Assembly: GCF_030265065.1 (NCBI RefSeq)
Contig: NC_080406.1
Span: 15,785,094-15,849,093, forward strand
Length of the DNA: 64,000 nt
Origin: Corythoichthys intestinalis
Taxonomy: Eukaryota
Reading direction: 5' to 3'
This document shows positions 5,778 to 57,342 of this stretch, piece by piece. The position numbers were made by a program, and so were the translations under genes. Position 1 is the stretch's first letter. Each line of letters begins with the position of its first letter. The notes under the pieces are model-generated. The model was not told where the DNA came from. It did no database searches and worked only from the letters and a program-made list of their open reading frames with translations.

Positions 5778-5800
5778 GTTAGGGGTTAGGGTTAGGGTTT
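5778..5800. repeat. Interstitial telomere-like repeat (TTAGGG)3-4
   Basis: GGTTAGGGGTTAGGGTTAGGGTT lies directly next to the TA target of Tc1-A copy 2. Confidence 0.6.
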
Positions 5801-5804
5801 AAGA

Positions 5805-7436: not shown

Positions 7437-7539
7437 TACAGTATGTGAATATGAAATATTAAAAATGCATTTATTCCGTACGACAGGGCTAAATTACTGA
7501 ATCATGGTCAAAGCTGCCGACTTCTTAAACCTTCCGAAC

Positions 7540-8484
7540 TAGTGATGTGTCGGTCGCGAACGAGCCGGTACAAAGAGCCTACTCTTTGAAGTGAACGATG
7601 AGAGCCGGCACCCTCGCTCGAGAGCCAGCTCGGTCATTTTCCCTTCTATCTATCCATCTATCCATCCATCCATCCATCCGTCCATCCATCTAGGAAAGGA
7701 CAACACACGAACACGGTTTCTAGGCCTTCAAGATGAGCAGAAAACGCAGTAACATTTGGAGACATTCTAATTGGTTAAAGTCACATGACAATAGGGCAGA
7801 GTGCCCTGTCTGTAAACTTAACCCCTTATAGCTTAATGTATCGCATTTGACACACTTAGAATTTCATTAATTTGAGACTCTAATATAGAAATTTGAATTT
7901 TTTTTTTTTTTTTAATTGAAGGATGCAAGTCAACACATGCATCTGCAGGTTCCATGAAAAAAAAAAAAAATCTGAATTTAGCTGAAAGACTGGACAAATA
8001 ATTACTGACAGAAGGAGCCGGATCAGCCCGTCCAAGTTGAAGTATTTAGTTTTCTTGAATGCAAATTTAAAATAAATCAAGAAGTAGCTTATGTTTGTTA
8101 AAATAAAGCAAGGAGTAGCTTATGTTTGTTTTGTTCGCTGTTGCTGTTACAACTCACTATTTTCGTTATGATGCAGCATGTTTGATTGTTGTTGGTTGAA
8201 GTTTGATTTTGTTGCTTGTTTATTGTTTGGAACCTTTTTAATGTTCAATAAAATAAGCAAAAAACCCTTTTCTTTGCTTGATAATTTTTGCTATTTGCAG
8301 TCAGTAGACTGCAATATTTAGTTCACCAAGTCATTTATCGAAATATATGCTAAATTTGTCATAAATATTTAAAAGAAAAGCTAAAGTTAAAAGAGCTGTA
8401 TGAGAGCCAAAAAGAGCCGACTCTTTTCACTGAGCCGATCCAAATGAACCGGATCACCGAAAAGAGCCGAAAATCCCATCACTA
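7540..8484. mobile_element. hAT-type non-autonomous element (TAGTG-TIR family), copy A
   Basis: Ends TAGTGATGTGTCGGTCGCGAACGAGCCGG … ATCCCATCACTA. It is flanked by the 8-bp duplication TTCCGAAC / TTCCGAAT. The ends match those of the element at 45555-48736. The interior holds a (CCAT)n tract and a short tandem duplication. Confidence 0.6.
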
Positions 8485-8962: not shown

Positions 8963-10340
8963 TACAGTGGAGCAAATAAGTATTTAGTCAACCACCAATC
9001 GTGCAAGTTCTCCTCCTTGAAAAGATTAGAGAGGCCTGTAACTGCCAACATAGGTAAGCCTCAACCATGAGAGACAGAATGTGGAAAACCAAAACAGAAA
9101 ATCACATTGTTTGATTTTTAAAGAATTTATTTCCAAATTACAGTGGAAAATAAGTATTTGGTCACCTACAAACAAGCAAGATTTCTGGCTGTCAAAGAGG
9201 TCTAACTTCTTCTAACGAGGTCTAACGAGGCTCCACTCGTTACCTGTATTAATGGCACCTGTTTTAACTCATTATCGGTATAAAAGACACCTGTCCACAA
9301 CCTCAGTCAGTCACACTCCAAACTCCACTATGGCCAAGACCAAAGAGCTGTCAAAGGACACCAGAAACAAAATTGTAGACCTGCACCAGGCTGGGAAGAC
9401 TGAATCTGCCATAGGTAAAACGCTTGGTGTAAAGAAATCAACTGTGGGAGCAATTATTAGAAAATGGAAGACATACAAGACCACTGATAATCTCCCTCGA
9501 TCTGGGGCTCCATGCAAGATCTCACCCCGTGGCGTCAAAATGATAAAAAGAACGTTGAGCAAAAATCCCCGAACCACACGGGGGGACTTAGTGAATGACC
9601 TACAGAGAGCTGGGACCACAGTAACAAAGGCTACTATCAGCAACACAATGTGCCGCTAGGGACTCAAATCTTGCACTGCCAGACGTGTCACCCTGCTGAA
9701 GAAAGTACACGTCCAGGCCCGTCTGCGATTCGCTAGAGAGCATTTGAAAGATCCAGAAGAGGACTGGGAGAATGTGTTATGGTCAGATAAAACCAAAATA
9801 GAACTTTTTGGTAGAAACACAGGTTCTCGTGTTTGGAAGAGAAAGAATACTGAATTGCATCCGAAGAACACCATACCCACTGTGAAGCATGGGGGTGGAA
9901 ACATCATGCTTTGGGGCTGTTTTCTGCAAAGGGACCAGGACGACTGATCTGTGTAAAGGAAAGAATGAATGGGGCCATGTATCGAGAGATTTTGAGTGAA
10001 AATCTCCTTCCATCAGCAAGGGCATTGAAGATGAGACGTGACTGGGTCTTTCAGCATGACAATGATCCCAAACACACAGCCAGGGCAACAAAGGAGTGGC
10101 TTCATAAGAAGCATTTCAAGGTCCTGGAGTGGCCTAGCCAGTCTCCAGATCTCAACCCCATAGAAAATCTGTGGAGGGAGTTGAAAGTCCCTCTTGCCCA
10201 ACGACAGCCCCAAAACATCACTGCTCTAGAGGAGATCTGCATGGAGGAATGGGCCAAAATACCAGCAACAGTGTGTGAAAAGCTTGTGAAGAGTTACAGA
10301 AAACGTTTGGCGTTCGTTATTGCCAACAAAGGACTAATGA
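8963..10340 (+). mobile_element. Tc1-like transposon family B, copy 1 (3' truncated)
   Basis: Left IR/DR TACAGTGGAGCAAATAAGTATTTAGTCA … GGAAAATAAGTATTTGGTCACC, then 5'UTR, then transposase. No right IR follows 10340. Confidence 0.8.
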
Positions 10341-10372
10341 CAGTCCATTTGCGCCACGTCACCAAGCGTTGA
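9330..10372 (+). pseudogene. Tc1-B transposase (Sleeping-Beauty-like), broken into three ORFs
   Basis: [23 protein letters not shown]…; [11 protein letters not shown]; [15 protein letters not shown]; [10 protein letters not shown]; [16 protein letters not shown]. There is an in-frame stop at 9657 and a frameshift near 9930. The C-terminus departs from the FVIANKGxATKY consensus. Confidence 0.8.
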
Positions 10373-11426
10373 CGCGTTGACCAGTCAGAAAATTGTGGAG
10401 ATGCACATCAGGCTATGGCGAAGGGTCGTAAATCGGCTCTGCCTTGGCAGTGCAGGTCTGCTGCAGAAACATAACTCGGTGTTAAGTCTTTCATTGGCAG
10501 TAAAGTCCCAGGATTGTGAGATTTACAAGAAGTTCATGTGGGATCCTGAAATGATTTGCCATGCGAAAGGAATATGACGATTGATTTACGACCGTGTATG
10601 CTGGCGCCTGTCAACGGATACTTCCAACTGTCTAAAAATTAGAAATATTGACATTAATCTAAATATTGTCTGGATATAAACATAGCCAAGATTAGTTTTC
10701 CTGCGCTTTGAAAACACTTTAATGAATCCCTGCGTCATCAGTCTCAAATGCCGTATAGTGTGTTTTTTAGGAAATGTCAATGATCCTTGAACTCTCACAG
10801 ACGTTTGATAGCCCTTAGTGGGTAAGCATTGGCGCCGCTGATGCACCGTGCCCGGTTTCATTCCGCAAATTCCTGATAGAAAATGTGAGCCTGTTGGGAA
10901 ATTATTATCACGGGCGTATCATTTTTCATACGATGATTGGTTATTTTCCCTGAGAAATGAGAAGCCAAGAACACACGCACGCACACACCTACACGCACAG
11001 CGTGCGTGAAGTAGCAGGTGTAATCGAGGAAATCAGTACACTGCTTACTATTCATGGTACCACTATTGAAGGGGAGTTTCTGTATTATCGCCTCTTTATC
11101 ACTTTTGTGGTGTTCTTTGGGAGTGTGAATTAAAGATTCTCCACACATACCTTGATTGTGAATAATGGTAGGTTCCTATAGGTTCTCATGCAAGTCCACA
11201 GCTATAGTATCTGATTTTTGTAGTAGTATTTTCCCATGAGCCACAGAGAGAGCACAGAGTTATGTTTGTTGTTTTATTCCAAGAAGAGAACAAACAGACA
11301 CACGGAATACAGTACACTAACGTGTATGGCATGGCAGTAGCTTCCACATAAACTTGAATTATCTGACTTTCCGGTTTGCTTGAATGCAGGAATTAGTCCA
11401 TGTAAAAAATTCCATCGTATATTGTT

Positions 11427-13612
11427 TAAAGCAGTGTTTTCAACCTTTTTCAAGCCACGGCACACTTTTTTCATGAAAAAATTCCAATGCACACCACAAG
11501 CAAAAAATGTAAAAATGAATTTCTGTAGACAATATAAAGTTGTGTATTGAATAGGAATCATACAAACAAAGAAAAACACATTTTATAATCATTTTTTTAC
11601 TCTGGCAAGACGAAACAAAAACACTCAAGCAGGGAGGCAAGGTCACCCTATCACACGTCAACAAAAGGTTCCTGAGAAAAATGACAACGTTTAGTTAAAC
11701 ATTCAGTCTTTGAAGGCTCTCGCAGGGCGGGCCATGGGCAGGAAGAGGGTGTGTTTGGGATTTTTTTTCTGTTGATTCGGGAGTTACTGTTGTCCGGGCA
11801 ACGAAAGTTGTGGATTTTGCAACGTCAGCGTCAAAGGGGCTCTTGGAGTCTTGTCAGTCGTGTTATCAGTTGGGTATCGGGCGTTCTCCGGTGTTTCTTG
11901 TATTGAGACAGAGCGTCCTGCTATTTGTTCTGGACTGTCCGAGAGAACTGATTGCGAGAGTTTGTGCATCAATCTTGCTCAGTCAGTTGTATGACGCACG
12001 CGCTGGGCTTATATGATAAGAAGGCGTTGTTTATCTCTTATGCCCGGAAAGGGGACACCGGGTGCCTAGTGATGAAGAGAATAGACAACTAGATATTAAC
12101 ATTGGAAAATAGAAATAAAGTAAGACAAGTAGTAGGTAGAGTGAGAAAAAGGAGATAGAACTCAGTGGCTGTACTTCCCCCAGCATTATAACTTCTAGTG
12201 CAGCTTAGACTAAACTGTGAGTCTACTCCGACTTCAGCTAGCCTGACCATAAGCTTTGTCGAATAGGAACATTTTTAATCTAATCTTAAATGTGCAGACT
12301 GTCTCAGCTTCTTTAATATTAGCTGGAAGCTGATTCCATAAAACGGGCTTGGTGGCTAAAGGCTCTAGCTCCGACAGTACTTTTAGAAATCCTGGGAACT
12401 ACCAGTAGACCTGCATTCTGTGAGCGGAGGGTTCTGTTGGGGCGGTATGGAACCAGAGCATCAGTGAGATAAGATGGCCCCAACCCATTAATGGTCTTAA
12501 ATGTAAGAAGGAGGATTTTAAATTTAATTCTAAACTCGACTGGAAGTCAGTGAAGGGCCTGGAGCACAGGGGTGATGTGCTCTCTTCTATTGGTTCCTGT
12601 TAAAAGTCTTGCTGCTGCATTTTGGACTAGCTGAAGACCTTTTAGAGAACTTTTAGGACAAGCTTCAAGTAGGGAGTTACAGTAATCCAATCTCGATGTA
12701 ACGAACGCGTGAATTAATTTTTCTGCATCGCTTTTAGATAAATATTACTAATTTTTGCTATGTTGCGCAGGTGAAAGAAGGCTGTTCTGCAGGTTTGTTT
12801 AATGTGAGCTTTAAAGAGCATACGACACGAGAAAAAAAGTCTTAAATGGCATTATTATGTGAATTAGAATCATATTTTGAGACGATTCGACTATATACAA
12901 CAATTTAGCAAAGCGCAGATAACGAGAAATTAGTCTTTTAATCTGCCAGTTAGCCGCGCCTACCATTATAGGGCTTTAGTAAGTGTACATATCGATAGCC
13001 TGTGAGCTTCTGTCATGACGAAGGTTTGTTTGTGAATGAGAATTGACAGTTAACACCGTAAAGGCAGTGTGTGACTGCGCATGCATGTGCAAATTTGTAT
13101 CCAAAGAAGAATATGGGTATTTTCGACTTAATTGCTTTATATATACATTTATATATGTATTGCTCGTAATCAAAGTCTTAACAACTGGGCAGGCTCTCTG
13201 GGAAAACTTCACAGGCAGCACAGTACCGTTGTATTCTGTGCAAAGCGTCAGTCAATTTCAACACACGCTAATTGGTCCTGTGAAAAATAATGAAAACAGG
13301 ACATTTTCATTAATTCATAAAACCCCGCTGGACGCCTCGGACATGATGTGAAAAGCGGACATGTCTGGGCAAAAGAGGACATTTGATCACCCGAAATTAG
13401 TTGCCTATTGACACCTACTGATTTGGAAAAGTATTGCGTGATTACCAACCATTGCACAGCACATACACCAGATTTTACGCATTTGCGGCTTCATTATCCA
13501 AAAGTATTTTTACATTAATTACGTGAAAGTGGATGATTTTCTATGGCACACCGGACACTATGCTACGGCACAGTAGTGTGCCGTGGCACAGAGATTGAAA
13601 AACACTGGTTTA
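11427..13612. mobile_element. ~2.2-kb element bounded by ~45-bp inverted repeats, with an L2 fragment inside
   Basis: Left TTTAAAGCAGTGTTTTCAACCTTTTTCAAGCCACGGCACAC. The right end is its reverse complement, CACAGTAGTGTGCCGTGGCACAGAGATTGAAAAACACTGGTTTAAA. The flanking duplication is TA or TTAA and cannot be resolved. Confidence 0.45.
12043..12815 (-). mobile_element. L2-clade LINE, 3' fragment (same family as 33100-37520)
   Basis: Over 95% identical to 33105-33880, covering the ORF2 C-terminus plus 3'UTR. It ends abruptly at 12815, where an unrelated repeat starts. Confidence 0.8.
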
Positions 13613-14902
13613 AAGTTTCACATTTCTTGTCTGGAAGTATAGGCCCGATAAGTTTTGAATCATCAGATTGGCCTGTTTCATTTGATTAATAATTGAGTGT
13701 GCCTTGACACAAAGCAAAGCCCACTATCAGTTCAGAGTCCTTTTCTCTAGATTGGTGACTCACATAACAGGCTTGGCCGCTATGGCCTTTGTACTAAGCC
13801 ACACCTGCAACATCATTTCCCTGTGAAAGGTCCTTTTCTCTTGCTTGTCAATGCAGCCATGGCCACACCATATCCGTACTTAAAACCTTTTCTCCTACAT
13901 TCTTGTGCGCTTATTCACTGGTGCTTTCAGTCTTATTACTTTCCCCTAGTAGTGTTCTCTGCCTCCAGCCCTCATGCTCACCCACCTGTGTCTTATCGCC
14001 TCCCATCACTACAAAGTCTTTTCACTTGCTTTCTCTACTTCTGCGTACTCTCTTTTTGGCTCATTTGTTCTTCTGCCTGGTTCTCGCATGCTTGCTCGCC
14101 AGCTTTTTTTTTCTCTTCCAAGTTGATGTTTGAGAAAACTTTGTCAGTTTCATTGCCAACAAACTCTCACACACACTTAGACAAGGTGTGACTCAACACT
14201 GTAAAGTTTTGCTTTCATGGGCAATTGTTATTTTTATTCAACTTTTTCCTTGGCCCTCAGTATTGCCCGTGAATGACGCATGCTCTGCTCAAACAGTTTA
14301 AATTTCATTGGTTTTAATCGATTTAAAAGCGCAAAGGAGTTTTACACCAACAATGGAAAGGGGGGGGAATCTAATGTTAAGAGACAAATGTTAAAGTAGT
14401 GTTTCTTCACAATATAAGTCGTATTATGGATCCCAAGACATTCAATTGAGCAAAAGTATTGATGGGAATTTTTTTTAATCATTTAGAATGTTTACATTTA
14501 ACATTCATTCTTTATTTTAGTTATATGACAACATTAAAAAAATGTTCTCTTCATACACTTACATGAGTAAAAACACTGTTTTCCCAAAATTAAAACTAGT
14601 AATATGATTATATACAGTAAATATATACAGTGGGGCAAATAAGTATTTAGTCAACCACTAATTGTGCAAGTTCTCCTACTTGAAAATATTAGACAGGCCT
14701 GTAATTGTCAACATGGGTAAACCTCAACCATGAGAGACAGAATGTGGGGGAGGGGGATTGAAAACTGAAAATTACATTGTTTGATTTTATAAAGAATTTA
14801 TTTGCAAATCATGGTGGAAAATAAGTATTTGGTCGATACCAAAAGTTCATCTCAAGACTTTGTTATGTATCCTTTGTTGGCAATAACGGAGGCCAAACGT
14901 TT

Positions 14903-18380: not shown

Positions 18381-19320
18381 TATGAGTGCTTTCCAGTGTT
18401 GTTAATAACGGCGTTACAATATAACGGCGTTACTAACGGCTTTATTTTTTTCAGTAGTGGGTAATCTAATTAATTACTTTTCTCATCTTGGCAACGCCGT
18501 TACCGTTACTGAGGACGGAAAGGCATGCGTTACTATGCGTTACTTTATTGGTCGAAAAGTCTGAGGGAGACGGACTCACCGAGACGACAGAGCAGAGCAG
18601 GAGTAGGGAGGAGGCAAGAAAGTTGTGACGGCGAGCAAACGCCATGCTAGGTAGCTCCAATAATACATGTTGTAGCCGATAGCCTACCAACTACGCCCGC
18701 ATGTTATGGTAGATATGGTAGACATGGTAGATATCACATGTACTGTACATAGATATAACTAGATGCAAAATGACAGACATGGCACTAAATGAGTTAGTAG
18801 ACAGCCGCCATCTTAAAGCAGTAGACTTTTTAGGACGGCTCTGTTGTAGAGAACCTTCCTAGCGAACCTAAGTAACTTTTAATCTAAAATACTTCTAAAT
18901 CGGCAAAATCTTGACTTGAATCTATCTTTAAATGATGAAACAGTTTTAAAACTTTCATATGCCGAAAGTAGAGAGAAGGGAACTAATGCAATAATGGGAG
19001 CAATTTTAACAACTTTTAACAGTTGATTCAGGGTAAAGGGTAAATTAAGGTAAAGAATTGGGCTTGGGCCAATTGTACCAAAAACCTTCACAAAAAAAAC
19101 TTCCCATCGTGTGGCCAATTTTTTTTGTTTGTTTTTTTGTTTGTTTTTTGAGGGAAAAAAAAAAGTAATTATCACCAATTACTTTGCCAAGTAACTAATT
19201 ACTCTTACATTCAGGTAATTGAGTTACTAACGCAATTACTTTTTGGGAGAAGTAATTTGTAACTATAATTAATTACTTTTTTTTCAGCAAGATTAACAAC
19301 ACTGGTGCTTTCACACCAGA
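18381..19320. mobile_element. Candidate MITE (~940 bp)
   Basis: Inverted termini GCTTTCCAGTGTTGTTAATAAC … ATTAACAACACTGGTGCTTTC. Subterminal repeats include AACGGCGTTAC and GTAATTAC. The interior is AT-rich. Confidence 0.4.
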
Positions 19321-19642
19321 TGTCCGTTTGTTTTGTTCTGATTCAGGTGCTAAATCGATACAGTCCTCTCCATTTCCATTTGGGGCATTTGTCTTCAACA
19401 TTCAACATTGTATACAGATTTAAAATGTAAACAAATACCATGCGCTACTATAGACACAGTATCAGATATATAAGGCTGATGATGAAATTTTCCGAAACAG
19501 AATCATAACCACATTAATAAGATTTGTTAGAAACCAAACCGTTTGCAAATCTGTCTAGAATTCAACGAGTTAAGAGTATTCTAGTGGAGAAAATTGCTCA
19601 CATTATGTCTGCTGAAGTGAAGCCCGCCAAAGAAGTCGTCAC

Positions 19643-20516
19643 TAGGGTTGTTCCAATCATGTTTTTTGCTCCCGATCCGATCCCGATCGTTTTAGTTTGA
19701 GTATCTTCCAATCCCGATATTTCCCGATCCAATTGCTTTTTCTTTTTGCTCCCGACTCAATTCCAATCATTTCCGATGATTTTTCCCGATCATATCCATT
19801 TTGGCAATGCATTAAGAAAAAAAAATGAATAAAATATATACATTCAACATACAGTACATAAGTACTGTATTTGTTTATTATGACAATAAATCCTCAAGAT
19901 GGCATTTACATTATTAACATTCTTTCTGTGAGAGGGATCCATGGATAGAAAGACTTGTAATCCTTAAAGGATAAATGTGACTTTGTATATTGTGACTAAA
20001 TATTGCCATCTAGTGTATTTGTTGAGCTTTCAGTAAATGATACTATAGCCATGCCCAAATGCATGATGGGAAGTGCAACCATGACTGTGCGTAGTGGTAC
20101 CAATTGATATATCTTCTCTGCGTTGGGAAACAACATAGGGTGTTGAGAAAAAGATCAACTACTACCTTTGTTCCCCACATTGCTTCCCACGATATTTCTA
20201 ATTGTTGAGAGAGGGATTGTAAGGCTTTAGTCAATTAAAAAAAGGGTTCAAAGGCTGCCAAAATTCTCTCTACTCATTTAACGTTACCTTTTAATTCTAT
20301 GTATACGTAAAACGGTGCCATTATAGATTGAACACGACAATGCGTGAGTGAGTAGCGCAGCGCATTCGTTAATTGCGTTAAATATTTAAATTTTATTACC
20401 GCCGTTAACGCGATAAATTTGATAGCCCTACATTAAGCCAAAACTAAAGACTCTGGATGAGTGTAAGACATTTTGTCTGTAACGTTAAATATAATTTAAA
20501 AATGATTTAATTTGAA

Positions 20517-20566
<50 letters not shown>

Positions 20567-20662
20567 TAGGTATGTCCGATATTTTTTTGTCGATTCCGAT
20601 ACTTTGAAAATGACGTGATCAGACCCAATCGATCGTGATGCCAATCAATCAGGACATCTCTA
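19643..20662. mobile_element. hAT-type non-autonomous element with an 8-bp TSD
   Basis: TAGGGTTGTTCCAATCATG … GACATCTCTA, flanked by GTCGTCAC at 19635-19642 and 20663-20670. Subterminal CCCGATC repeats are present. The interior is homologous to the 40575 family, including that family's right terminus at 20432. Confidence 0.6.
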
Positions 20663-21129
20663 GTCGTCACCGACTCCACATTTAAACATCTATAGCTTTA
20701 TATATGGCGGAAAACACAGACAAGACTGAAAAAGCAGTTTCTGCTCTTGCACTCTTTAAAAGAAACTGCTGTATTTTAAGCCTAAACAACTGTTGTGTTT
20801 GATAGAACAATATGTCTATATGCTGTCATAGCAGATTCATAGAGCATTAAGCCCCTGAACTATTTGTAATTTGTCCGTTTTACCCTGGAAACCCCCTTTT
20901 ACAGAAGTTGCGCAACCGCTTTTGTTTCAACCCAGCCATAAAACAAAAGTAATTAATTAATATTTATTTTTCAAAATTTCAGTCATTTTCAGCTTAGAAT
21001 CATTAATAGATGTCTAATATTTCGTTTAAAAAAATGACTTTAAAAAATTATTCATTCGCATATTTTAAACTTTTAAACAAATTACATCACAATGAAAAAA
21101 ATGGCGTTGTAAAAAAGTCATGGATATCT

Positions 21130-21760
21130 ACCTCATAACTATTCCTTAATTGTATTTCTTTTTGTTACTGTCGCATTTTCTCCGATATGTTAGATAAGTA
21201 ATCGATCCAAACAAAGAAAAATTGAAGAAAAAAAAATAAACGTTTCAAAGGGTAAATATATGAAAAAGAAAATCTCGACCACTCCTTGATGTCTGCGATT
21301 TCTGCATCGCGACCCTTGTTTTATTACCGTTTCACCCATAAAATCCCCCAAAAATCCAGCTGTGGCCATTCACAGCTGTGTCTTGACACTCGGTGATACT
21401 TGCTACATAGAGTTTTTGGATCGAAACAACGTAAGTACGCAATAATATCTCGTTAAAGTCATGGCGTCTGTGATTCTGCTCTTGCGTGCTCTCACCTCCA
21501 GTTAGGGTTTTGCTGTTTAAATTTTTTTTTTTTTTAAATGCCCTCCTATTCAAAATTTGTCTTCCCCCAGAAATTTGAGATTTTAAGCTTTCCAACGATG
21601 TATCACACATGCATATCCGACAATTTTGAAATTTGGCCAAATTGGGGGTCTCAGAGCAAAACTTCAAGTCACCTGAGTGTTTTCCGCCATATCTATGTGC
21701 GTGACACAATTGCACTGTCAATGGTCAGGAATTAGCCCACAAAGCGCACGCATACACAAA
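21130..21760. repeat. Dispersed repeat R2 (second copy at 53235-54480)
   Basis: About 90% identical to 53235-53364 plus 54024-54480. It holds the uninterrupted site GGGTAAATATATGAAAA. Confidence 0.5.
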
Positions 21761-25717: not shown

Positions 25718-27183
25718 CCATATTTTTCGGACTTTCAGTCACACTTGAGTATAGGTCGCACCAGCCATAAAATGCCCAACGAAGAGGAAAAAATCATATA
25801 TAAGTTGCACTGGAGTATAAGTCGCATTTTGGGGGAAATTTACTTGATAAAACCCAACACATAGAACAGATATGTGATCTTGAAAGGCAATTTAAAATGA
25901 AAATAGAATAGAGAACAACATGCTGAATAAATGCACAGTATGATAATGTTACATGATGCATGAACAACGAAATGCGAACGTGGCTGGTATGTTAACGTAA
26001 CATAGCTGTCACATAGCCCATTCACTCCCAGCCATTTTCACCGGTGCAACCCCCTTCGCTCCCGGCCATTTTACTAGATTTTGACTGACTTTTCAAGGCC
26101 CACAGAAAATTCGGTTCTATTGCTATATAAACATGGAACCCACCAAAAGAAAGATTAGACTCTTCTTTCAGGAAAAAAAAGTAAATTCATATCTTTTTCC
26201 ATTCTTTAGAAATCAGCATTAGAAAATAGCTTAGTTTGAGCAAATTTTCCAATTTCTGATGAAAAAAAAGAAAAATTGAGCTTTTTGTGCCATCATACAT
26301 TTCAAACATAATTTTGACTTTAACACAGCTATTTTTTGCATCCCAAGCATCTGAATAATGATTCCTTTTACAAAATAACATAAACAACAAGACAAATAGA
26401 GCTTTTGATAGCAAAGTAACAATTTATTTACACATAACTAACTGAGTGATGACGCTGTTGTGGTCGCGACAGCCAGGTAAACTTTTCCCTCATTGCCGCC
26501 TGTCTCATAAAGATGGACTTTTTAGAGTTTCTGCGGGGTCTGCTCGGCGAGCAGCACGGACTCAACGGCATTGTCCGCTGCACTGGTGGCTCCGGTCGTT
26601 CTGCTCGGTCGTCCAGTGCCTGGCACCCCGCGCGTCCTCTAGGTTGTTCTGCTCGGTCGTCCGCCGCTTGGCACCTGGACACCATTCGGTCGTCTTCCGC
26701 TGGCGCCCCGGCCGTGCGGCCTGGCATTGAATCGGGTTACGGGTCCTTCCAAATGCGCTTTTGCCCTCCAGTGGCCAGTTTTATTGCTTTAAAATGGATT
26801 TCCAGCTTTGTGCTTTGGAGCTAAATTGAATCAGAACCCAGAGATGTCTCTTGTTAAAAAAAAAAAAATGTAATGTGAAAATGTAAAAAGATGTATAAAT
26901 ACGTCTTTGGGACATTGAAACAATTCAAAATAGAATGTATTTATACGTATTTGGGAGCAAATGAGTTAAGAGCCATTCAGATAACTATAGCAAAAAGAAC
27001 ATGCTAACAAGTTTACCAAACCATCAGTGTCACTCCAAAACACCAAAATAACATGTGAAATGATATAATCATGTGTCAATACTTTCACACATAAGTCGCT
27101 CCAGAGTATAAGTCGCACCCCCAGTCAAACGATGAAAAAAACTGCGACTTATAGTCCAAAAAATACGGTAATTGTCCCACTTG
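25718..27183. mobile_element. TIR-bounded element related to the MITE at 39850, with repeat R3 inside
   Basis: GTACCATATTTTTCGGACTTTCAGTC…TATAAGTCGCA at the left end and TGCGACTTATAGTCCAAAAAATACGGTAA at the right. Confidence 0.4.
26020..26960. repeat. Dispersed repeat R3 (second copy at 54780-55740)
   Basis: About 90% identity over ~900 bp. It contains internal ~40-bp GC-rich direct repeats (GTTCTGCTCGGTCGTCC..GC.TGGCAC). Confidence 0.55.
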
Positions 27184-29823: not shown

Positions 29824-32513
29824 AGAAAAATAGGTAACACTTTATAATAATAACTATCCGTTTAACCATTAGTAAACTGTTGATAAATGATTTATTGTTG
29901 ATTTGTGAAGTTACCAAAATAGGTAACACTTTATAATAACTATCCGTTTTACCATTAGTGAACTGTTGATAAATGATTTATTGTTGATTTGCGAAGCATT
30001 TGTTAACAGTTTGTTAAGCATTTACAGGGTGTTCTTAACCTGAAACACAGTTTGTGTAGAAACGTTTCAAGTTTTTGTGTGTAACGTTTGGCATTTCTAT
30101 CTTTTCAGGTTAAGAAATGCCGTTCACTTCAAAAGAAAAGGCATTTTGATAAGGCATTTTGCAGGCAGCGCTCATGTTGCACATTTATGAAAATCTGCCA
30201 TAGAACCAACAAATAATTGTACTTTTCTTTGTATATTTAACCAATAAAACTTATGACCTTCAACATAAAGTGTATATAGTTTTATTAAGATCCATCAACT
30301 TATGGAGTTACAGGAGTGCCAAAATTAAAAATAAATAAATAAATGAATAAATAAATAAATGAATGAATAAATAAATAAATAAATATAAAGAGAAATAAAT
30401 ATATAAATGAATGAATAGGTAAATAAATGAACGAATAAATAAATATAAAGAGAAATAAATATATAATTAAATAAAAATATAACGGTATACTTTGTCATTG
30501 ACATTTACTTTTGATCATTAACAACCACAAACGGAAAAAACAATGACAATTTTATTTTTTGCCTTTGCCTTTTCTGTTTGGCTTTTACATTGTCATTGTC
30601 ATTTGTCAATCGCCTTTCCTCTTTGGGAATGTAAATGGCAAATGCGCAGAGAAACGGTCTGTCAATCAAATGACGTTGGTAGGGGCTTTCCAACCAGGAA
30701 TAGTAGTCGATAACTGATTATTTCTAGTTTAACTTTCCGCACATGCGCCGTACGGCTAACCAAGCGCGACCACGGCTGTTTTGTGTGACTGCACTACGCC
30801 ACTTCCTCCAATCGGTCTTTGTCAGTCACGTGCCCAAACTAGCGGACGCGCCCCCATGCGCCATTTTGAGTGTACCACGGATGTAAACAAACCAGAACAG
30901 AAGTAGCTCCAACGCCACATTACTGCCTCCAACTTCATCGCTGGATATAAAAAACTCCCTCTTTTACAGTATCAGCGCTTAAATTTTAAAAACTATAAAT
31001 CTCTCGAAGCTCACGGACATTTAACAAATGGCTCGGTGCAGGATCTCCGCATTTCGACCGCAGGACTGCGACAACACAGTCGTCACTCTCGTTGCTCCTC
31101 TCAGAAACATGATCCAGCTCTTACTTGAACATTGTTGAACTTGAATTGTACCTTGATTATCATCTTAAACATCGCATGACTAAAACAGGTGAAGGAACTG
31201 TCAAAATTACATGCAAATTCATGTATATTGCACAATATATTGTTTCAGTGTTGACATTGCCATGCAAAGATGTGCAATTCTCTCCATGCAGGACTTATCA
31301 TGTGAAGTGGGACAAATTTACTTGAACACGTTATTCTACAACTAGTAATATTTATTTTACTTCATATGCACGTTTTATATTTCCTTGTATTGCCATTTTC
31401 TGTTTACCATTGTGCGGCTGCTGTTTTGAATGAGAATTTTAGTAAAAATTATATATCTAAAAAAGTAAAACTGTCAAACTTCTCGTTTTGTTTGCAAACA
31501 TCATACTTCCTATTCAGTGTTTATCTCCCAAAAAATGTTTGAATGTAATTGGTAAAAAAAAATTTTTTTTAAAAAGTACTTTCCATGATCAAAACTAACA
31601 CTAGTTCTTTATGTATGTTCGTCATGATTATAAACACGAAGATTCAGACATAGAAAATAATTATTCTTTGAATGGTCTGGCATGTGTGTCGAATAATATA
31701 TTTTATAATATATTTTTTTACCGGTCTAGAAAAATGTATTTCTATCGTTTAATCTATCACGTAAAAAGTCTATCCATATCCATATCTATCCAGTCTATCC
31801 TATCCATAAAAACCGCACGTGCAACTCGATAACCGACATCACTTTCCTTCAGGTAAACTAGGAATAATCCGTTGTCGACTACTATTCCTGGTTGGAAAGC
31901 CCCGCCTAACGTCATTTGATTGACAGACCGTTTCTCTGCGCATTTGCCATTTACATTCCCGAAGAGGAAAGGCGATCGACAAATGACAATGACAATGTAA
32001 AAGCCAAACAGAAAAGGCAAAGGCAAAAAATACAATTGTCATTGTTTTTTCCATTTGTGGTGTTCAATGACAGAAAGTAAAAGTCAATGAAAAATGTTGT
32101 CATTGTTTTTTCCGTTTGTGGTTGTTAATGACCAAAAGTTAATGTCAATGACAAAGTATAACGTTATATTTTTATTTATTTATTTATTTATATATTTATT
32201 TCCCTTTATATTTATTTATTCGTTCATTTATTTACCTATTCATTTATTTATTTATATATTTATTTCTCTTTATATTTATTTATTTATTCATTCATTTATC
32301 GATTTATTCATTTATTTATTTGTGACTCCATACAACTAGCATGGGCATTTAGAATGGGGTCAATCATATTGGAATACCCTGTAAATGCTTAACAAACTGT
32401 TAACAAATACTTCACAAATCAACAATAAATCATTTATCAACAGTTTACTAATGATCTATTAACTAGTAAAGCGGATAGTTATTATAAAGTGTTACCGAAA
32501 AATAACAATTATA
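29824..32513. mobile_element. Foldback-like element with ~700-900-bp inverted arms
   Basis: 29824-30720 is the reverse complement of 31850-32513. The match includes a tandemly duplicated ~85-bp subterminal unit and an (AAATAAATG)n-like tract. About 1.1 kb of central sequence is unique. Confidence 0.55.
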
Positions 32514-40574: not shown

Positions 40575-41673
40575 GTATATTTACCAGGGCTGTCAAACGA
40601 TTACAATTTTTAATCGAGTTAATCACAGCTTTAAAATTAATTAATCGTAATTAATCGTAATTCAAACTATCTCTAAAATATGCCATATTTTTCTGATTGT
40701 TGGAATGGAAAGATAAGACACAAGACGGACATAAACATTCAACATACTGTACATAAGTACTGTATTTGTTTATTATAACAATAAATCCACAAAATGGCAT
40801 TAACATTATTCTTTCTGTTAAAGGGATCCACGGATAGAAAGACTTGTAGTTCTTAAAAGATAAATTTGAGTACAAGTTATAGTAAGTTTATATTAAAACC
40901 TCTCTTCATGTTTTAGTTTTAATAAAATTTGTAAAATTTTCAATCATAACAATAAACTAGTAGCTCGCCATTGTTGACGTTGCCGAGCGGGACGTCACAT
41001 GGGCTCCCTGCCGTTCTTCCGCAGTGTCTTTAACTACGTAAGATAGTGATTGAAATACACCACAAGGTGTCAATGGCGAGTTTAAAATTAATCAGAGATC
41101 TAGCCAAGGCAAAGTCTGAGTAAGTTTTATGTGTATTTTGCATAGCTATTTTGATTGGGAATGCCAGTTCTCTTTGCATTGAGCGCCTTTCTTTTTGTGA
41201 ACATTATTTTTTTGAGAGATAGGAATATTATTTTTGTTGTGCTTTCACTAAATGATACTGTAGCGACTTAACTGTTGCGCCCAAATGCATGATGGGAAGT
41301 TGGGCAACCATGACTGTCAGTGGTGGCTGCAAATGGTATACAGTATGTTCTGCGTTGTGTTCAATTAAGCGTGTCAAGAAAAAGATCGTCTGCTGTCTTT
41401 CTTCCCCATGTCGTTCGCCACAATACTTATATTTGTTGTGAAAGAGCTGCCAAAGCTTAAGCCAATAAAAGGCGCTGTCCAATGAACGCCTGGGTCCACT
41501 CGCATTTCTCTGCCTTTTCGCTCTCAATATGCCAAAATGGCGTCATTGTAAACTGTTTGAGGCAACGCGTTAACGGGTCATTCCGTGAATGCGTTAATTG
41601 CGTCAAATATTTTAACATGATTAATTTTAAAAATGAATTGCCACCCGTTAACGCGATAAATTTGACAGCACTA
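40575..41673. mobile_element. hAT-type MITE of the TAGGGCTGTCAAACGATTA family
   Basis: Ends CAGGGCTGTCAAACGATTAC…TAATCG repeats … CGTTAACGCGATAAATTTGACAGCACT. It shares its internal sequence with 19840-20430 and 53520-53780. Confidence 0.6.
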
Positions 41674-43606
41674 AGTAGTGAGCACACAAGCACACTTTGT
41701 GCTTGTGGGATCTCTATTTATTATGTGACTTGTTCAACACTGCTTTTGGACTATAAAACAACTGCAAGAGACAAAAACTGCCACCTAAAAAAGTGCAAGA
41801 GACATGTCCCTGGCATTCTACGCTGTAAATTATGTCTATGCGGCTGGCTCAAACTCGTCAATGAAAAGATTCATTCATATTGGATCCGTAAGGGGAGTTT
41901 GACTTTTTGGGGGCACAAAATGTTGATGACCCCGAAACGCTGTGTCAGCAATAAAATTAACTTACAAGAATATTTATAATTATAAGTTGAAAATGAGCGA
42001 TTTTTTGTTTCACATCATTTTTGAGGGGAATTCTAAACTAGGCTGCTTAGGACAGCGATAATTTTCGCCAAGGTCGCCATCCATTGAATATGGTACGCCC
42101 GCATGTGGTGGCTCTGTTGTATAATTAGTGTATTTAATGGGGCAAATTGAAACTCAGCTCTCTGGCGTTTCATGGTCCACATTTTCAATCATTGGTTCTT
42201 GCTCAGTAGATATTGTCACTTTTGAAAGCTTAGGTTTGAAAAAATTACGTATATCCATCTTGCCTCTTAGGTCCTCAGGTGGTTTTGGCTAACCAGAGTA
42301 AATGACCGTCTCAGGTGCTAGTCACATGATATGTTGAAAAATAATTTAGACCCATTATAAAAATGTTTTTAAAAAAGTCAATTCAATTCATTTTTGTTTT
42401 TTTGTTTTATTGCTTTTTACAACTTTTATAGACAATATTTTACCGGAAAACTCTTAATTTTAAAATCATACATAGGAAAGTTATTTACATGCAATGGCAA
42501 TTTTCTGCCACCAGGGGGGCGCCCCCCCCCCTTAAACTCCAGGTATGGTTGGATTCTTTCCACATTTTTTCTAAAAATCACCAAACTTGACAAGCTCACC
42601 AAATTCAACATAAAAAACACAATTTGGCAGCCTAAGAAAAACGTACTAACTCTATAACGCATGTACTCATTGGATACTTGACTAAACTCCATTAAGAAGT
42701 TCATTTGCAAACTGAATAATACTCACTTTTGATTAATAGTGTCAGAGAGCTATGGATTGAATGTTAAATCCTCAAGTACTAAAGTGGGTCTATCGATCGG
42801 CGAGTTAGCGACCTTGACTTTTCTGATCATGCCCTGATTTTTGCAGTCAATTGATGTCCTTGTTGAATCAGAGTGTCTTTGACTGTGTGTCCTGGCTAAA
42901 TACCACAATTCCGCCATTTAGTGACTGTCTGGATGCTGTTCCCAACACTGGTGGTGGAAATTTTCCACTTTGTTAGAATAATAAATATTAAATATTAAGC
43001 ATGTTCATAATTTACATTCAACACTGAAATTGGCTGCTGCAACCCAGTCACTCGGTTCGGTTTGAAAGGCAAATGTGAATAAATGCCTGTATGTTTGATA
43101 ATGGCTCTGGAATAGAGAGAGTCACTCGGTTCAGTTTGAAAGGCAAATGTGAATAAATGCCTGTATGTTTGATAATGGCTGTGGAATAGAGAGCGTATTG
43201 ACTTGACCTTTGGTACCAAGTCCCTGAGGAAAATCATCAGATAACAATGTGTGTTTCGTGAGACATACGTATGATCTAACAGGCGTATGACCGTATACTA
43301 GTTATGTCGAAGAGAAAAAAAATGTTGAATTGGACTTCATATGATCGGCGTATAGTGCCTATGCCCATGATTGCAAAGGTGACGATAAAAAAAAAGACTT
43401 AAACAAGATTAGACCAGAGGTACGTAGAGTAGCCAAAGGTTTTACTCAACAAAGAGCGTTCCTTCTAAATAATATTAGACAAGTAAAAGTAGTCATCCAA
43501 AAATTTACTCAAGTACAAGTAAAATAGTATTAGTTGAAACGAATACTCAAGTAATGCGTAACATTGTGAGTAGCTGCTAACAATGTCTGATTTTAATGGT
43601 ATAATA

Positions 43607-43608
<2 letters not shown>

Positions 43609-43659
<51 letters not shown>
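43609..43659. repeat. (TA)n microsatellite, target of the Tc1-A copy 3 insertion
   Basis: (TA)n runs directly into TACAGTG. A matching (TA)n tract lies at 45290-45327 on the other side. Confidence 0.9.
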
Positions 43660-43662
<3 letters not shown>

Positions 43663-45286
43663 TGCCTTGCAAAAGTATTCGGCCCCCTTGAACCTTGCAA
43701 CCTTTCGCCACATTTCAGGCTTCAAACATAAAGATATAAAATTTTAATTTTTTGTCAAGAATCAACAACAAGTGGGACACAATCGTGAAGTGGAACAAAA
43801 TTTATTGGATAATTTAAACTTTTTTAACAAATAAAAAACTGAAAAGTGGGGCGTGCAATATTATTCGGCCCCCTTGCGTTAATACTTTGTAGCGCCACCT
43901 TTTGCTCCAATTACAGCTGCAAGTCGCTTGGGGTATGTTTCTATCAGTTTTGCACATCGAGAGACTGACATTCTTGCCCATTCTTCCTTGCAAAACAGCT
44001 CGAGCTCAGTGAGTTTGGATGGAGAGTGTTTGTGAACAGCAGTCTTCAGCTCTTTCCACAGATTCTCGATTGGATTCAGGTCTGGACTTTGACTTGGCCA
44101 TTCTAACACCTGGATACGTTTATTTTTGAACCATTCCATTGTAGATTTGGCTTTATGTTTTGGATCATTGTCCTGTTGGAAGATAAATCTCCATCCCAGT
44201 CTCAGGTCTTGTGCAGATACCAACAGGTTTTCTTCCAGAATGTTCCTGTATTTGGCTGCATCCATCTTCCCTTCAATTTTAACCATCTTCCCTGTCCCTG
44301 CTGAAGAAAAGCAGGCCCAAACCATGATGCCGCCACCACCATGTTTGACAGTGGGGATGGTGTGTTCAGGGTGATGAGCTGTGTTGCTTTTACGCCAAAC
44401 ATATCGTTTTGCATTGTGGCCAAAAAGTTCAATTTTGGTTTCATCTGACCAGAGCACCTCCTTCCACATGTTTGGTGTGTCTCCCAGGTGGCTTGTGGCA
44501 AACTTTAAACGAGACTTTTTATGGATATCTTTGAGAAATGGCTTTCTTCTTGCCACTCTTCCATAAAGGCCAGATTTGTGCAGTGTACGACTGATTGTTG
44601 TCCTATGGACAGACTCTCCCACCTCTGCTGTAGATCTCTGCAGTTCATCCAGAGTGATCATGGGCCTCTTGGCTGCATCTCTGATCAGTTTTCTCCTTGT
44701 TTGAGAAGAAAGTTTGGAAGGACGGCCGGGTCTTGGTAGATTTGCAGTGGTCTGATGCTCCTTCCATTTCAATATGATGGCTTGCACAGTGCTCCTTGAG
44801 ATGTTTAAAGCTTGGGAAATCTTTTTGTATCCAAATCCGGCTTTAAACTTCTCCACAACAGTATCTCGGACCTGCCTGGTGTGTTCCTTGGTTTTCATAA
44901 TGCTCTCTGCACTTTAAACAGAACCCTGAGACTATCACAGAGCAGGTGCATTTATACGGAGACTTGATTACACACAGTTGGATTCTATTTATCATTATCG
45001 GTCATTTAGGACAACATTGGATCATTCAGAGATCCTCACTGAACTTCTGGAGTGAGTTTGCTGCACTGAAAGTAAAGGGGCCGAATAATATTGCACACCC
45101 CACTTTTCAGTTTTTTATTTGTTAAAAAAGTTTAAATTATCCAATAAATGTTGTTCCACTTCACGATTGTATCCCACTTGTTGTTGATTCTTGACAAAAA
45201 AATTAAATTTTATATCTTCATGTTTGAAGCCTGAAATGTGGCGAAAGGTTGCAAGATTCAAGGGGGCTGAATACTTTTGCAAGGCA

Positions 45287-45291
<5 letters not shown>
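43658..45291 (-). mobile_element. Tc1-like transposon family A, copy 3: structurally intact, candidate autonomous element
   Basis: Both terminal repeats are intact, TA flanks are present, and the transposase ORF is uninterrupted. Confidence 0.9.
43879..44898 (-). CDS. Tc1/mariner DD34E transposase, 339 aa, intact
   Basis: MKTKEHTRQVRDTVVEKFKAGFGYKKISQALNISRSTVQAII… forms the paired-like HTH region. The catalytic triad is in place: [21 protein letters not shown] and [16 protein letters not shown]. The protein ends AAVIGAKGGATKY. There are no internal stops. Confidence 0.9.
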   Translation of the reverse strand: MKTKEHTRQVRDTVVEKFKAGFGYKKISQALNISRSTVQAIILKWKEHQTTANLPRPGRPSKLSSQTRRKLIRDAAKRPMITLDELQRSTAEVGESVHRTTISRTLHKSGLYGRVARRKPFLKDIHKKSRLKFATSHLGDTPNMWKEVLWSDETKIELFGHNAKRYVWRKSNTAHHPEHTIPTVKHGGGGIMVWACFSSAGTGKMVKIEGKMDAAKYRNILEENLLVSAQDLRLGWRFIFQQDNDPKHKAKSTMEWFKNKRIQVLEWPSQSPDLNPIENLWKELKTAVHKHSPSKLTELELFCKEEWARMSVSRCAKLIETYPKRLAAVIGAKGGATKY

Positions 45292-45331
<40 letters not shown>

Positions 45332-45554
45332 CATACTCACGGTACACCATGCTAGTAACGGGTTGGACCCTGTTTTTCCTTCAGAACTGCCTCAATTCTT
45401 CGTGGCATAGATTCAACAAGGTGCTGGAAGCATTCCTCAGAGAGTTTGGTCCATATTGACATGATGGCATCACACAGTTGGTGCAGATTTGTCGGCTGCA
45501 CGTCCATGATGCGAATCTCCCGTTCCACCACATCCCAAAGATGCTCTATTGGAT

Positions 45555-53234: not shown

Positions 53235-54480
53235 GCTGTTGAAACTTTTTTTTTTGTTACTATCGCATTTTCCCCCATACAGTATGTTAGATGATAAATA
53301 ATCGATCCAAACAAAGAAAAAATGGGGGGGGGGGGGGGGGGGGGGCGTTTAAAAGGGTAAATATTAGGGCTGTCAAACGATTAGAATTTTTCATCGAGTT
53401 AATTAATTAAGATTGTAAGATTAATTAATTAATCATAATTCATCTTAATTCATCGCAATTCAAACCATCAATAAAATATGCCTTTTTTTTTGTAAATTAT
53501 TGTTGGAATGGAAAGATAAGACACAAGATGGATATATACATTCAACATACGGTACATAAGTACTGTATTTGTTTATTATAACAATAAATCAACAAGATGG
53601 CATTAACATTATTAACATTCTGTTAAAGCGATCCATGGATAGAAAGACTTGTAGTTCTTAAAAGATAAATGTTAGAACAAGTTATAGAAATGTTATATTA
53701 AAATCCCTCTTAATGTTTTCGTTTAAATGAAATTTGTAAAATTTTCAATCAAAAAATAAACTAGAAGCCCGCCGTTGTTGATGTCAATAATTGCGCAATA
53801 CTCATGGGTGCTTAAGCCTATAAAATCAGTCGCACCCAAACGCCAGCAGAAGGCGAAAAAACTCCAAGAAACACAAGTCACAAGTTGGCATTGCACTGTG
53901 CTGTCATTTTAATCTGTTTGAGCGGGGCATGTGCGTTAATTGCGTCAAATATTTTAACGTGATTAATTTTAAAAATTAATTACCGCCCGTTAACGCGATA
54001 ATTTTGACAGCTCTAGTAAATATATGAAAATGAAAATCTCGATCACTCCTTGATGTTTGCGATTTCTGCATCGCAACCCTTGTTATATTACCATATTTCA
54101 CCCATAAAATCCCCCAACAATGCAGCTGTGACCATTCACAGCTATGTCTTGACACTCGGTGATACATGCGACATGGAGTTTTTGGATCGAAACAAGGTAA
54201 GTACGCGAGAATATCATGTTAAAGTCAAGGCGTCTGTAAATCTGCTATCGCGTGCTCTCACCTCCAGATAGGGTTTTGCTGTTTAAAAAAATGTTGTTTT
54301 TGAAATGCCCTCCTGTTAAAGATTTTTCTTCCCCCAGAAAATTAAGATTTTAAGCTTTCCAATAATGTCTCACACATGCATATCGGAAAATTTTGAAATT
54401 TGGCCAAATTGGGGGTCTCAGAACGGAACTTCAAGTCACCTGAGTGTTTTCCGCCATAAGATAAAATTATAGATAGTACC
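53235..54480. repeat. Repeat R2 copy interrupted by a hAT MITE
   Basis: It matches 21130-21760 on both sides of 53365-54015. A (G)26 tract lies at 53317-53342. Confidence 0.5.
53365..54015. mobile_element. hAT MITE (TAGGGCTGTCAAACGATTA family) with a verified 8-bp TSD and an empty-site paralogue
   Basis: Ends TAGGGCTGTCAAACGATTAG … TTTTGACAGCTCTA. GTAAATAT sits at 53357-53364 and at 54016-54023. The R2 copy at about 21220 reads GGGTAAATATATGAAAA without an insert. Confidence 0.8.
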
Positions 54481-54779
54481 CCAAAAATAAAACGGTAATT
54501 CCACACAGAACCCGTGCTTGAGCCCTTGATCTCAGAACTGTCAGCGGACATGCTAGCCACTCTTCCTCTGTGCCTCCCTTTTTACAAGTTTATTTGGGGA
54601 AAATTCATGTTTAATTCTAGCCACTCTTCCTCTGTGCCTCCCTTTTTACAAGTTTATTTGGGGAAAATTCATGTTTAATTCATATTTACGAGTACTGTAT
54701 AAAGTAAAACTCATGTTTCTAATGAGGCTTAAATTTGAATGATGTAAGGTAAGCGCATTGGTCAACTCCTGTGCTAATA

Positions 54780-55740
54780 GGTGTATTCAACTCATTCACT
54801 CCCAGCCATACTCACCGGAGCAAGGCCCTTCGCTCCCGGCCGTTTTACTGGATTTTGACTGATTTTGCAAGGCCCACAGAAAATTCTTTTCTATTGCTAT
54901 ATAAACAGGGAGCCCACCAAAAGAAAGATTAGACTCTCTTCTGTCAGCAGGGAAAAAGTAAGTTCATATCTTTTGCCATTCTTTAGAAATTAGCATTAGA
55001 AAATAGCTTAGTTTGAGTAATTTTCACATTTCTGATGAAAAAAAACTGAGAAATTGAGCTTTTTGTGAAAGCATACGTTTCAGATATAACTTTGACTTTA
55101 ACACAGTTATTTTTTGCTTTAGTTACATCCCAAACATCTGAATAATGTTTTCCTTATACAAAATAACAAAAACAAAAAGACAAATAGCGCTTTTGATAGC
55201 AAAGTAACCATTTAGTTAAACTTAAATGAGATGACGCTGTTGTGGCCACGACAGCCGGGTAAACTTTTCCCTCATCGCCGCCTGTCTCATAAAGATGGAT
55301 TTTTTTGAGTCTCTGCGGAGTCTGCTCGGCAAGCAGCACGGACTCAACGACATCGTCCACTGCACTGGTGGTCCTGGTCGTTCTGCTTGGTCGTCCAGCG
55401 CCTGGCATCCCGGGCGTCCTCTAGGTTGTTCTGCTCGGTCGTCCGCCGCCTGGCATCCTTCCGCCGGCCCCTGGCCATCTGGCCCGGCCGTTCGTTGCGG
55501 TTGAATCAGGTTGCGGGTTTTACCAAATGCGCTACTGCCCTACATACTGCCCTGCAGTGGCCAGTTTTATTACTTTAAAATGGATTTTCAGCTTTGTGCT
55601 TTGGAGCTCAGTTGAATCAGACCCTAGCGATGTCTCTTATGAAAAAACAAAAAACGTAAAAGACGTGTATATACATCTACGGGACACTGAAACAATTTTA
55701 AAAAGAACATAATTATACGTTTTTGGGAGCAAATGAGTTA
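54780..55740. repeat. Dispersed repeat R3, copy 2
   Basis: It matches 26020-26960. Confidence 0.55.
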
Positions 55741-57342
55741 AAAATTAAAATATATAATTAAAAAATGCCACTAATCTCAAGTTTACTATTGACAGCATGC
55801 GATTAATTACGACTGAAAATTTAATCGCTGGACAGCACAATTATTATTTCAATATTTCAATACGGTAGGTCATGATATAAAGTGGGCCGGTCTGTGGCAA
55901 GAAACTCCCGGGCTGAAAATGAGTCCCACTCCGGCCCTGGCCCCACCTAATCAGTCATTTTCTGTCATTTTTAAAGACTTTTTTTTTTGCATCGGCTCTG
56001 TTTATTTATTTAAACTCCATCCCGTCATCATTGATGTTTTTCTCTCAGAAGCGTGCATTCCTCTCTAGCTTTGCCGTCCGTTTGTGTAATCAGGCCAAAG
56101 CGTCACAAATTACAGCCTGTGACATAATAATTAGAACAAATCAGCCTCGCTCAGAGAGACTTAGAATTAATAGAAAAACAAGTACTATAATCCTCACAAA
56201 AGGAGGATTTGTCATTAAGGCTGGCGTATCATTCTGCATCAAGTTAATGTGTTTACCTAATAAACTGGCAAATGAGTTCATTAAGGGCCTCTATGCAGCC
56301 ACAGCTGATTTATTGATATAGATTTACGCCTCGTTTTATAACACTGAGTGCAAAATTAGTTATTTTGTGCCATCATAATGGAATTCATTACCTCCTTTGT
56401 TAATCAAACCTTTTTAAATGCATATTGGTACCATCAGTGAATTGCAACATCAGATCAAAGTCTTTCAAAATCTTGGCTATCTGATGAAAATTCGATAAGT
56501 CCACTTCATGACTTCTTCTGCTGCCCGGTTGTCAGGACCAGATCTTGTTTTTTAAACTTGCAAGTGAATCATTATTTGGATGACACGTTGGAGGAGTGTG
56601 ACCGCCAAAAAGCATCTCAAACTTATAGTGAACTGCAGTCGAAGGAAGAGAACATTTCTTGCCATGCAGCAATTTTGCAACACTGCTTCAATGTTACTTT
56701 GTAACCTTTGGGAAAGTGGATGGTGGACTGTACTTGCAATGATTGCAAAGTCTAATCTCTTAAAGGGAACCACGGATAAAAACACTTGTAGTTCTTAAAA
56801 GATAAACGATAGTTTGAGTTAAAATAATTTGATATTAAAACCAGTCTTGATGTTTTTGTTTTTATACACTTTGTAAAATTAGATTAAGTAGTAGGTCGCC
56901 ATTATTGTTGACGTCGCAATGCGGTGACATCACTGGGTTACGCTGCCGGCCTACCAGAGTATGACTGTAGCGACATAAACATGTCATCTGTTCAACCCTT
57001 TCAATTTGAACCCGAGAGTAACATTAATGTGCATGACAGCACTGTCAATATTTCACAAAACGTGCAGCTAAAGTAAAATGAACAGGAAAGACGGGATGAG
57101 ACAACACGAGAGTAGGACAAAACCGGTGTTCTGCCAAAATGTGGTACACTGGCGAAACGTTCTACAAGAGGGGACTTTGACATCCAAAGTACTACGTTGC
57201 GCTTTCAGCTTGTTTTGTTTAGATGCATACAGTGAAAACATACTAAAGATGCCTCAAGAAAATACTTAAACATAGTAATATCAAATAAGGGTGGTTTAAA
57301 TATGCCACGTGACTAATGTGGTCAACAGATCAAACTTTAAGG

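Follow-up and report, generated by a model that had tools for sequence, protein, structure and literature searches.

A 651-bp hAT-type MITE within a copy of the R2 repeat in Corythoichthys intestinalis, and the matching empty site in a paralogous copy

The 64-kb stretch of Corythoichthys intestinalis DNA analyzed here (hereafter the window) is dense in transposons: it contains three Tc1/Sleeping-Beauty-like copies (1-1101, 5804-7438, and 43614-45335) along with other Tc1 fragments, a LINE with an endonuclease-RT and an esterase-type ORF1, and several elements bounded by terminal inverted repeats (TIRs). The three Tc1/Sleeping-Beauty-like copies are ~98% identical to one another, and an intact 339-aa transposase ORF is found in one of them (43879-44898, minus strand), with its nearest relatives in ray-finned fishes (90–92% identity); this family is young compared with the hAT MITEs described below. 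Three TE proteins encoded in the window had no exact counterpart on record. Three candidate TIR elements with exact 8-bp target-site duplications (TSDs) were also detected (Table 1), two of which (18394-19304 and 11432-13607) look like other hAT-type elements. The region at ~13790-13840 (plus strand) translates to ...ATPATSFPCERSFSLA..., which resembles the conserved hAT dimerisation motif of transposase C-termini (E = 0.007 in tblastn with the C-terminal ORF of the metagenome element L056 introduced below), and probably represents the decayed remains of a hAT transposase from a different family.

By reading the sequence and indexing its 8-mers, we resolved positions 53357-54023 into a TSD, a 651-bp element, and a second TSD. 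An exact 8-bp TSD had been noticed here in an earlier, sequence-only reading of the window, and indeed GTAAATAT is found 8/8 on both sides. The element starts with TAGGGCTGTCAAACGATTAG and ends with TTTTGACAGCTCTA; its 13-bp TIRs, TAGGGCTGTCAAA and TAGAGCTGTCAAA (the latter being the reverse complement of TTTGACAGCTCTA), are identical at 12 of 13 positions, and past them the inner sequence differs between the two ends. The conventional 5' end, relative to the transposase gene of autonomous relatives, is the one on the 54015 side. MITEs are defined as short, TIR-bounded elements without coding capacity (PMC3517528), and with a longest ATG-initiated ORF of 43 aa between its TIRs the element agrees with this definition and with its first reading as a MITE. 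Since it has no coding capacity and no transposase matching its family is encoded in the 64-kb window, the element is non-autonomous.

Table 1 Coordinates of the insertion, its empty site, and related elements. Positions refer to the window, except in the last three rows.
Feature	Position	Strand	Description
Left TSD GTAAATAT	53357-53364	.	Same as 54016-54023; T at position 2 and A at position 7, agreeing with nTnnnnAn
Non-autonomous hAT element (MITE), 651 bp	53365-54015	.	31% GC; longest ATG ORF 43 aa
TIR TAGGGCTGTCAAA	53365-53377	+	Starts the CGATTAA...TTAATCG type end
TIR TAGAGCTGTCAAA	54003-54015	-	Starts the TCGCGTTAACGG / TAACGCAATTAACGC type end
Right TSD GTAAATAT	54016-54023	.	Exact 8/8 copy of the left TSD
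Left flank, R2 copy cut by the MITE	53247-53356	+	82% to 21155-21224 (53247-53324); contains the G22 run; 19 bp at the insertion 18/19
Right flank, rest of the interrupted R2 copy	54024-54458	+	Ends in the R2 terminus GTGTTTTCCGCCATA; 54016-54458 89.4% to 21252-21691
R2 copy with the empty site	20703-21691	+	Perfect 15-bp inverted repeat TATGGCGGAAAACAC at both ends; 21155-21691 homologous to the 53-kb copy
Unoccupied target site, single GTAAATAT	21252-21259	.	In the paralogous R2 copy; junction alignment seamless, no footprint
Longer relative, 1089 bp	40585-41673	+	Ends CAGGGCTGTCAAA and TAGTGCTGTCAAA; no TSD, flanks ATATTTAC / AGTAGTGA
Different hAT-like non-autonomous element	19643-20662	+	Ends TAGGGTTGTTCC... 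and ...GGACATCTCTA; exact TSD GTCGTCAC at 19635-19642 and 20663-20670
Left-truncated TAGGGCTGTCAAA-family copy nested in the 19.6-kb element	~19818-20430	+	Collinear with 40731-41673 (over 19834-20430); right end intact at 20418-20430
Candidate TIR element	18394-19304		TSD GTGCTTTC, exact 8 bp; TIR CAGTGTTGTTAAT, 13/13
Candidate TIR element	11432-13607		TSD GTTTAAAG, exact 8 bp; TIR CAGTGTTTTCAAC, 10/13
Candidate TIR element	29833-32496		TSD GAAAAATA, exact 8 bp; long inverted ends
L056 element (metagenome contig), 2435 bp	4756-7190	ORFs on -	Both end types; TSD GTTAATAT/GTTCATAT, 7/8
L124 element (Entelurus aequoreus; GCA_033978785.2, CM067134.1)	9469-12273		ZBED1-like gene exactly between both end types; TSD ATATATAT, 8/8
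L125 element (Neoarius graeffei; GCA_027579695.1, CM050639.1)	5759-8211		ZBED1-like gene exactly between both end types; TSD GTTTAAAT, 8/8

Next to chance expectation, this structure stands out. Given the base composition of the window, the calculated probability of an 8/8 direct repeat arising by chance at two given ends is ~0.26^8, i.e., ~2e-5. A scan for complete structures (an exact 8-bp repeat directly flanking a 13-bp TIR with ≤1 mismatch, at a spacing of 100–3000 bp) returned five in the window, compared to a mean of 0.015 across 200 windows simulated with a first-order Markov model. Two of these five are artefacts, i.e., palindromic 8-mers within long inverted repeats, and the remaining three, the 651-bp element among them, look like real elements. 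The TIR motif is also enriched across the window, with 14 matches (≤2 mismatches) against 3.7 expected, a number that none of 100 shuffles reached.

The element interrupts a copy of a repeat, R2, and a paralogous copy at 21 kb contains a single GTAAATAT within GGGTAAATATATGAAAA (context, AAAGGGTAAATATATGAAAAAG). An empty site matching the insertion had been proposed at ~21215-21235: the site itself is there, and it lies at 21252-21259, ~30 bp further right. The two loci are homologous on both sides of the insertion, as was also proposed, with BLAST identities of 89.4% over 443 bp on the right (54016-54458 vs 21252-21691) and 82% on the left (53247-53324 vs 21155-21224). When the element and one TSD are removed, the two copies align without gaps across the junction as CGTTT[A/C]AAAGGGTAAATATATGAAAA[T/A]GAAAATCTCGA, with no indel and no footprint. 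Around this point, 18 of 19 positions on the left and all of the first 12 bases on the right are identical, and ~30 bp surrounding the site are free of indels and inversions. The left flank of the 53-kb copy also includes a run of 22 G (53324-53345), 11 bp left of the left TSD, where the paralogous copy reads TTGAAGAAAAAAAAATAAA; this run could reflect either true expansion of a homopolymer or an error of sequencing or assembly.

hAT excision goes via hairpins in the flanking DNA and typically leaves small indels (PMC3499496), and because the 21-kb site carries no footprint, the best reading is that it was never occupied. The 21-kb copy thus keeps the pre-insertion state, which dates the insertion to after the split of the two R2 copies (present divergence, ~10.6%). 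This order of events is the most parsimonious one, with polarity resting on parsimony between the two available R2 copies. For the order to be reversed, the MITE would have to predate the split and to have been lost later at 21 kb, through precise excision or recombination between the 8-bp repeats, so that the empty site would be a derived state. Rare precise losses of DNA transposons do occur in general, and two R2 copies in the window do not formally establish polarity; however, a history of this kind would have to leave exactly one GTAAATAT and an otherwise undisturbed junction, unlike the small indels typical of hAT excision, and we regard it as extremely improbable.

An insertion after the split leaves the question of how the R2 copies themselves arose. 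A 15-bp inverted repeat without a single mismatch marks both ends of the 21-kb copy (TATGGCGGAAAACAC...GTGTTTTCCGCCATA, at 20703-20717 and 21677-21691), and R2 is probably a ~1-kb TIR transposon itself. In the 53-kb copy, the right terminus is present (54444-54458), and the left ~450 bp are missing together with the left TIR. Because R2 is bounded by perfect TIRs, its two copies probably represent two insertions rather than a segmental duplication. Hence, of the earlier proposal that the MITE inserted after R2 was duplicated, the order of events stands as the most parsimonious one, and the term "duplicated" probably does not, with two transposed copies in its place. The apparent mobility of R2 also means that composites could in principle spread: the MITE could have entered an R2 copy elsewhere, and the composite could have reached 53 kb afterwards, as a copy or by relocation, via R2 transposition or a segmental event. 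Such a history would leave the relative order (insertion after the split of the R2 lineages) unaffected, although the element could no longer be said to have inserted at this locus. Yet the 53-kb R2 copy, without its left portion and left TIR, is not transposable as a unit as it stands, and there is no second R2–MITE composite in the window, which together make this scenario very unlikely compared to an insertion in place.

Two other interpretations of R2 and its surroundings were considered and rejected. A single collinear segmental duplication, pairing 21–27 kb with 53–56 kb, could be suspected from a second ~1-kb repeat found near both R2 copies (26002-27016 vs 54777-55786, 81% identical). 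This second block has inverted ends of its own (AACTCATTCACTCCC... and ...GGGAGCAAATGAGTT) and lies 4.3 kb from one R2 copy vs 0.3 kb from the other, and it is an independent TIR element rather than an extension of R2. Similarly, a possible host first exon inside R2 (ATGGAG...AAG followed by GTAAGT, ~54174-54204) is better read as part of a transposon given the perfect TIRs of R2. A 27-mer common to both R2 copies had no match in bacterial or archaeal genomes or in viral contigs, as expected for eukaryotic DNA. Separately, a 64-bp unit is tandemly duplicated with 100% identity at 54553-54681, 95 bp past the right end of the 53-kb R2 copy.

Within the 64-kb window, the family of the 651-bp element has three members at 84–93% identity: a full copy, a longer relative, and a truncated copy. 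The longer, 1089-bp relative resembles the MITE at both ends (84% identity across the initial ~420 bp of the MITE, 93% across its final 84 bp), with a different middle of ~600 bp. A terminus common to the MITE and to a copy at 40575-41673 had been described previously; the relationship holds, and the start of this copy is shifted by 10 bp, to 40585. Both of its termini are present, while its flanks (ATATTTAC at 40577-40584 and AGTAGTGA at 41674-41681) form no TSD, which points to recombination of two copies or to one flank having been rearranged afterwards. The truncated copy is nested in a different hAT-like element at 19643-20662, for which both features noted originally were recovered, i.e., an exact 8-bp TSD of its own (GTCGTCAC) and, internally, the right end of the MITE family (20381-20430, with TAGGGCTATCAAA on the minus strand at 20418-20430). 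This nested copy lacks the left ~130 bp including the TIR, and its flanks, CATTAAGA (19810-19817) and CATTAAGC (20431-20438), match at 7/8 positions. Tentatively, it may be a nested insertion from which sequence was later deleted, beginning at the element end.

Next, we evaluated which transposon class and group the family belongs to. hAT elements have 8-bp TSDs and 10–25-bp TIRs (PMC3942097), and the 651-bp element has an 8-bp TSD (8/8) and a 13-bp TIR (12/13). Target preference was derived from the 8 bp preceding the terminus at 108 distinct junctions: T was found at position 2 in 70% and A at position 7 in 64%, with no central TA signal. This corresponds to the nTnnnnAn preference reported for Hermes (PMC10368747), rather than to the nnnTAnnn target of Buster elements (PMC3499496), and the individual TSDs GTAAATAT, GTCGTCAC, GTTTAAAT, and ATATATAT all agree with it. 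Judged by target-site preference, the family would belong to the Ac/Hermes-type group and not to Buster.

Additional evidence comes from the same termini in other genomes. In an exact scan, the 18-bp terminus AGGGCTGTCAAACGATTA was detected in >120 host-derived metagenome contigs, mostly from few projects, ~50 of which match the first ~40 bp of the MITE at ~85–95%. Genome contigs (596 Gb) yielded three matches to the 18-bp MITE terminus vs ~17 expected by chance (our own estimate), and a literature search for the terminus returned unrelated primer matches only. Most metagenome copies with both ends displayed TSDs with only 6–7 of 8 positions matching in what was a crude search, and the family as sampled is thus not obviously young. 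Over 40 bp, the CGATTAA-type end of the MITE is ~85–90% identical to the ends of elements that encode a transposase. One of these, L056, carries ORFs with Pfam matches to zf-BED (4.5e-6), DBD_Tnp_Hermes (5.6e-4), and Dimer_Tnp_hAT (2.4e-15); when joined into a conceptual protein, these ORFs match the Hermes transposase structure 6dww (E = 6e-18) and are 74–84% identical to teleost ZBED1-like proteins. In Entelurus aequoreus (L124) and Neoarius graeffei (L125), the genes bounded by both end types encode ZBED1_RNase-like and Dimer_Tnp_hAT domains. A hAT transposase enclosed by these termini is therefore present in three relatives (L056, L124, and L125), and none of this family is encoded in the window.

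The asymmetry of the ends is conserved across these elements, with CGATTAA...TTAATC motifs downstream of the transposase gene and TCGCGTTAACGG and TAACGCAATTAACGC motifs at the upstream end. The right end of the MITE shares 37 of 41 aligned positions with the upstream end of the Entelurus element; when the comparison is extended to 100 bp, 82 of 106 positions agree. The left end of the 40-kb copy is close to the Entelurus downstream end over ~100 bp by eye (79.5% over 156 bp by BLAST). The hAT assignment, formerly drawn from TSD length and TIR shape alone, is thus secure, because hAT transposase genes lie between the same ends, targets follow nTnnnnAn, and the TSD and TIRs agree with the hAT definition. 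An 8-bp TSD is not unique to hAT, and an element from another superfamily with TSDs of about this length (P, Merlin, or Zisupton), or a TIR and TSD pattern produced by chance, could be envisioned. This is effectively refuted by the three independent loci at which these ends enclose genes encoding zf-BED, ZBED1 RNase-H-like, and hAT dimerisation domains, as well as by the target logo and by the expectation of 0.015 chance structures per window. The fish genes at the Entelurus and Neoarius loci are annotated as "E3 SUMO-protein ligase ZBED1-like"; both are enclosed precisely by hAT TIRs and perfect 8-bp TSDs, which makes them copies of a transposon and not host ZBED1 genes, with a name that was likely carried over in annotation.

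Overall, we are highly confident that 53365-54015 is a non-autonomous, MITE-sized teleost hAT element of the Ac/Hermes type, related to elements with "ZBED1-like" transposases, which was inserted into R2 after the R2 copies split. The teleost ZBED1-like hATs of E. aequoreus and N. graeffei start with the same 13-bp TIR and have the same asymmetric subterminal regions (CGATTAA/TTAATC at one end, CGCGTTAAC/TAACGCAATTAACGC at the other) and 8-bp TSDs agreeing with nTnnnnAn. Unlike the window element, however, they are 2.4–2.8 kb long and encode a transposase, whereas the interior of the 651-bp element is unrelated and non-coding, so that only ~150 bp and ~90 bp of the ends are common to both, at ~75–90% identity. 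The Drosophila Mar and BuT2 MITEs are likewise short, non-coding, and TIR-bounded with 8-bp TSDs, and likewise consist of ends only and depend on a hAT transposase in trans (PMC3517528, PMC3942097); they are unrelated in sequence, occur in other hosts, and belong to the Buster and Tip groups, in contrast to the Ac/Hermes-type target preference of the window family.

The way in which the element moved can be outlined by analogy with Hermes, Ac, and Tol2. It keeps only the asymmetric ends of its autonomous relatives, i.e., ~100–150 bp of the CGATTAA end and ~85–95 bp of the GCGTTAA end, and, as it encodes nothing, must have been mobilised in trans, presumably by a transposase from another locus of the genome. 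This transposase may recognise the TIRs and subterminal repeats via its BED finger and DNA-binding domain, and the element would then be excised and integrated through staggered cuts at the 8-bp target, GTAAATAT, with gap repair yielding the 8-bp duplication. This target was part of an R2 copy that already existed, the paralogous copy at 21 kb never being hit. The superfamily mechanism of Hermes (housefly) and Tol2 (medaka), the animal hAT elements that have been characterised experimentally, is assumed to apply here as well (a BED-finger transposase that binds TIRs and subterminal repeats, an 8-bp staggered cut, and nTnnnnAn targets; PMC10368747); the ends of the window family display no sequence similarity to either.

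Taken together, the 651-bp insertion is textbook transposon biology, a standard case of nested transposons with nothing new in kind; it has little importance beyond annotation and raises no new question about transposition. It appears unlikely that the family is still active in the species, with the insertion being recent and polymorphic among individuals and the nested copy at ~19818-20430 reflecting aberrant one-ended hAT events; if true, ongoing mobilisation of a hAT MITE could be followed in a natural teleost system. For annotation, the pair of filled and empty sites gives precise boundaries, the TSD, and the target for one hAT MITE family, and the locus ties this family to ZBED1-like autonomous relatives. 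These data can be used when building a repeat library of this genome and when dating nested repeats relative to one another, with the MITE younger than the split of the R2 copies, and the insertion would serve as a presence/absence marker if it proves polymorphic.
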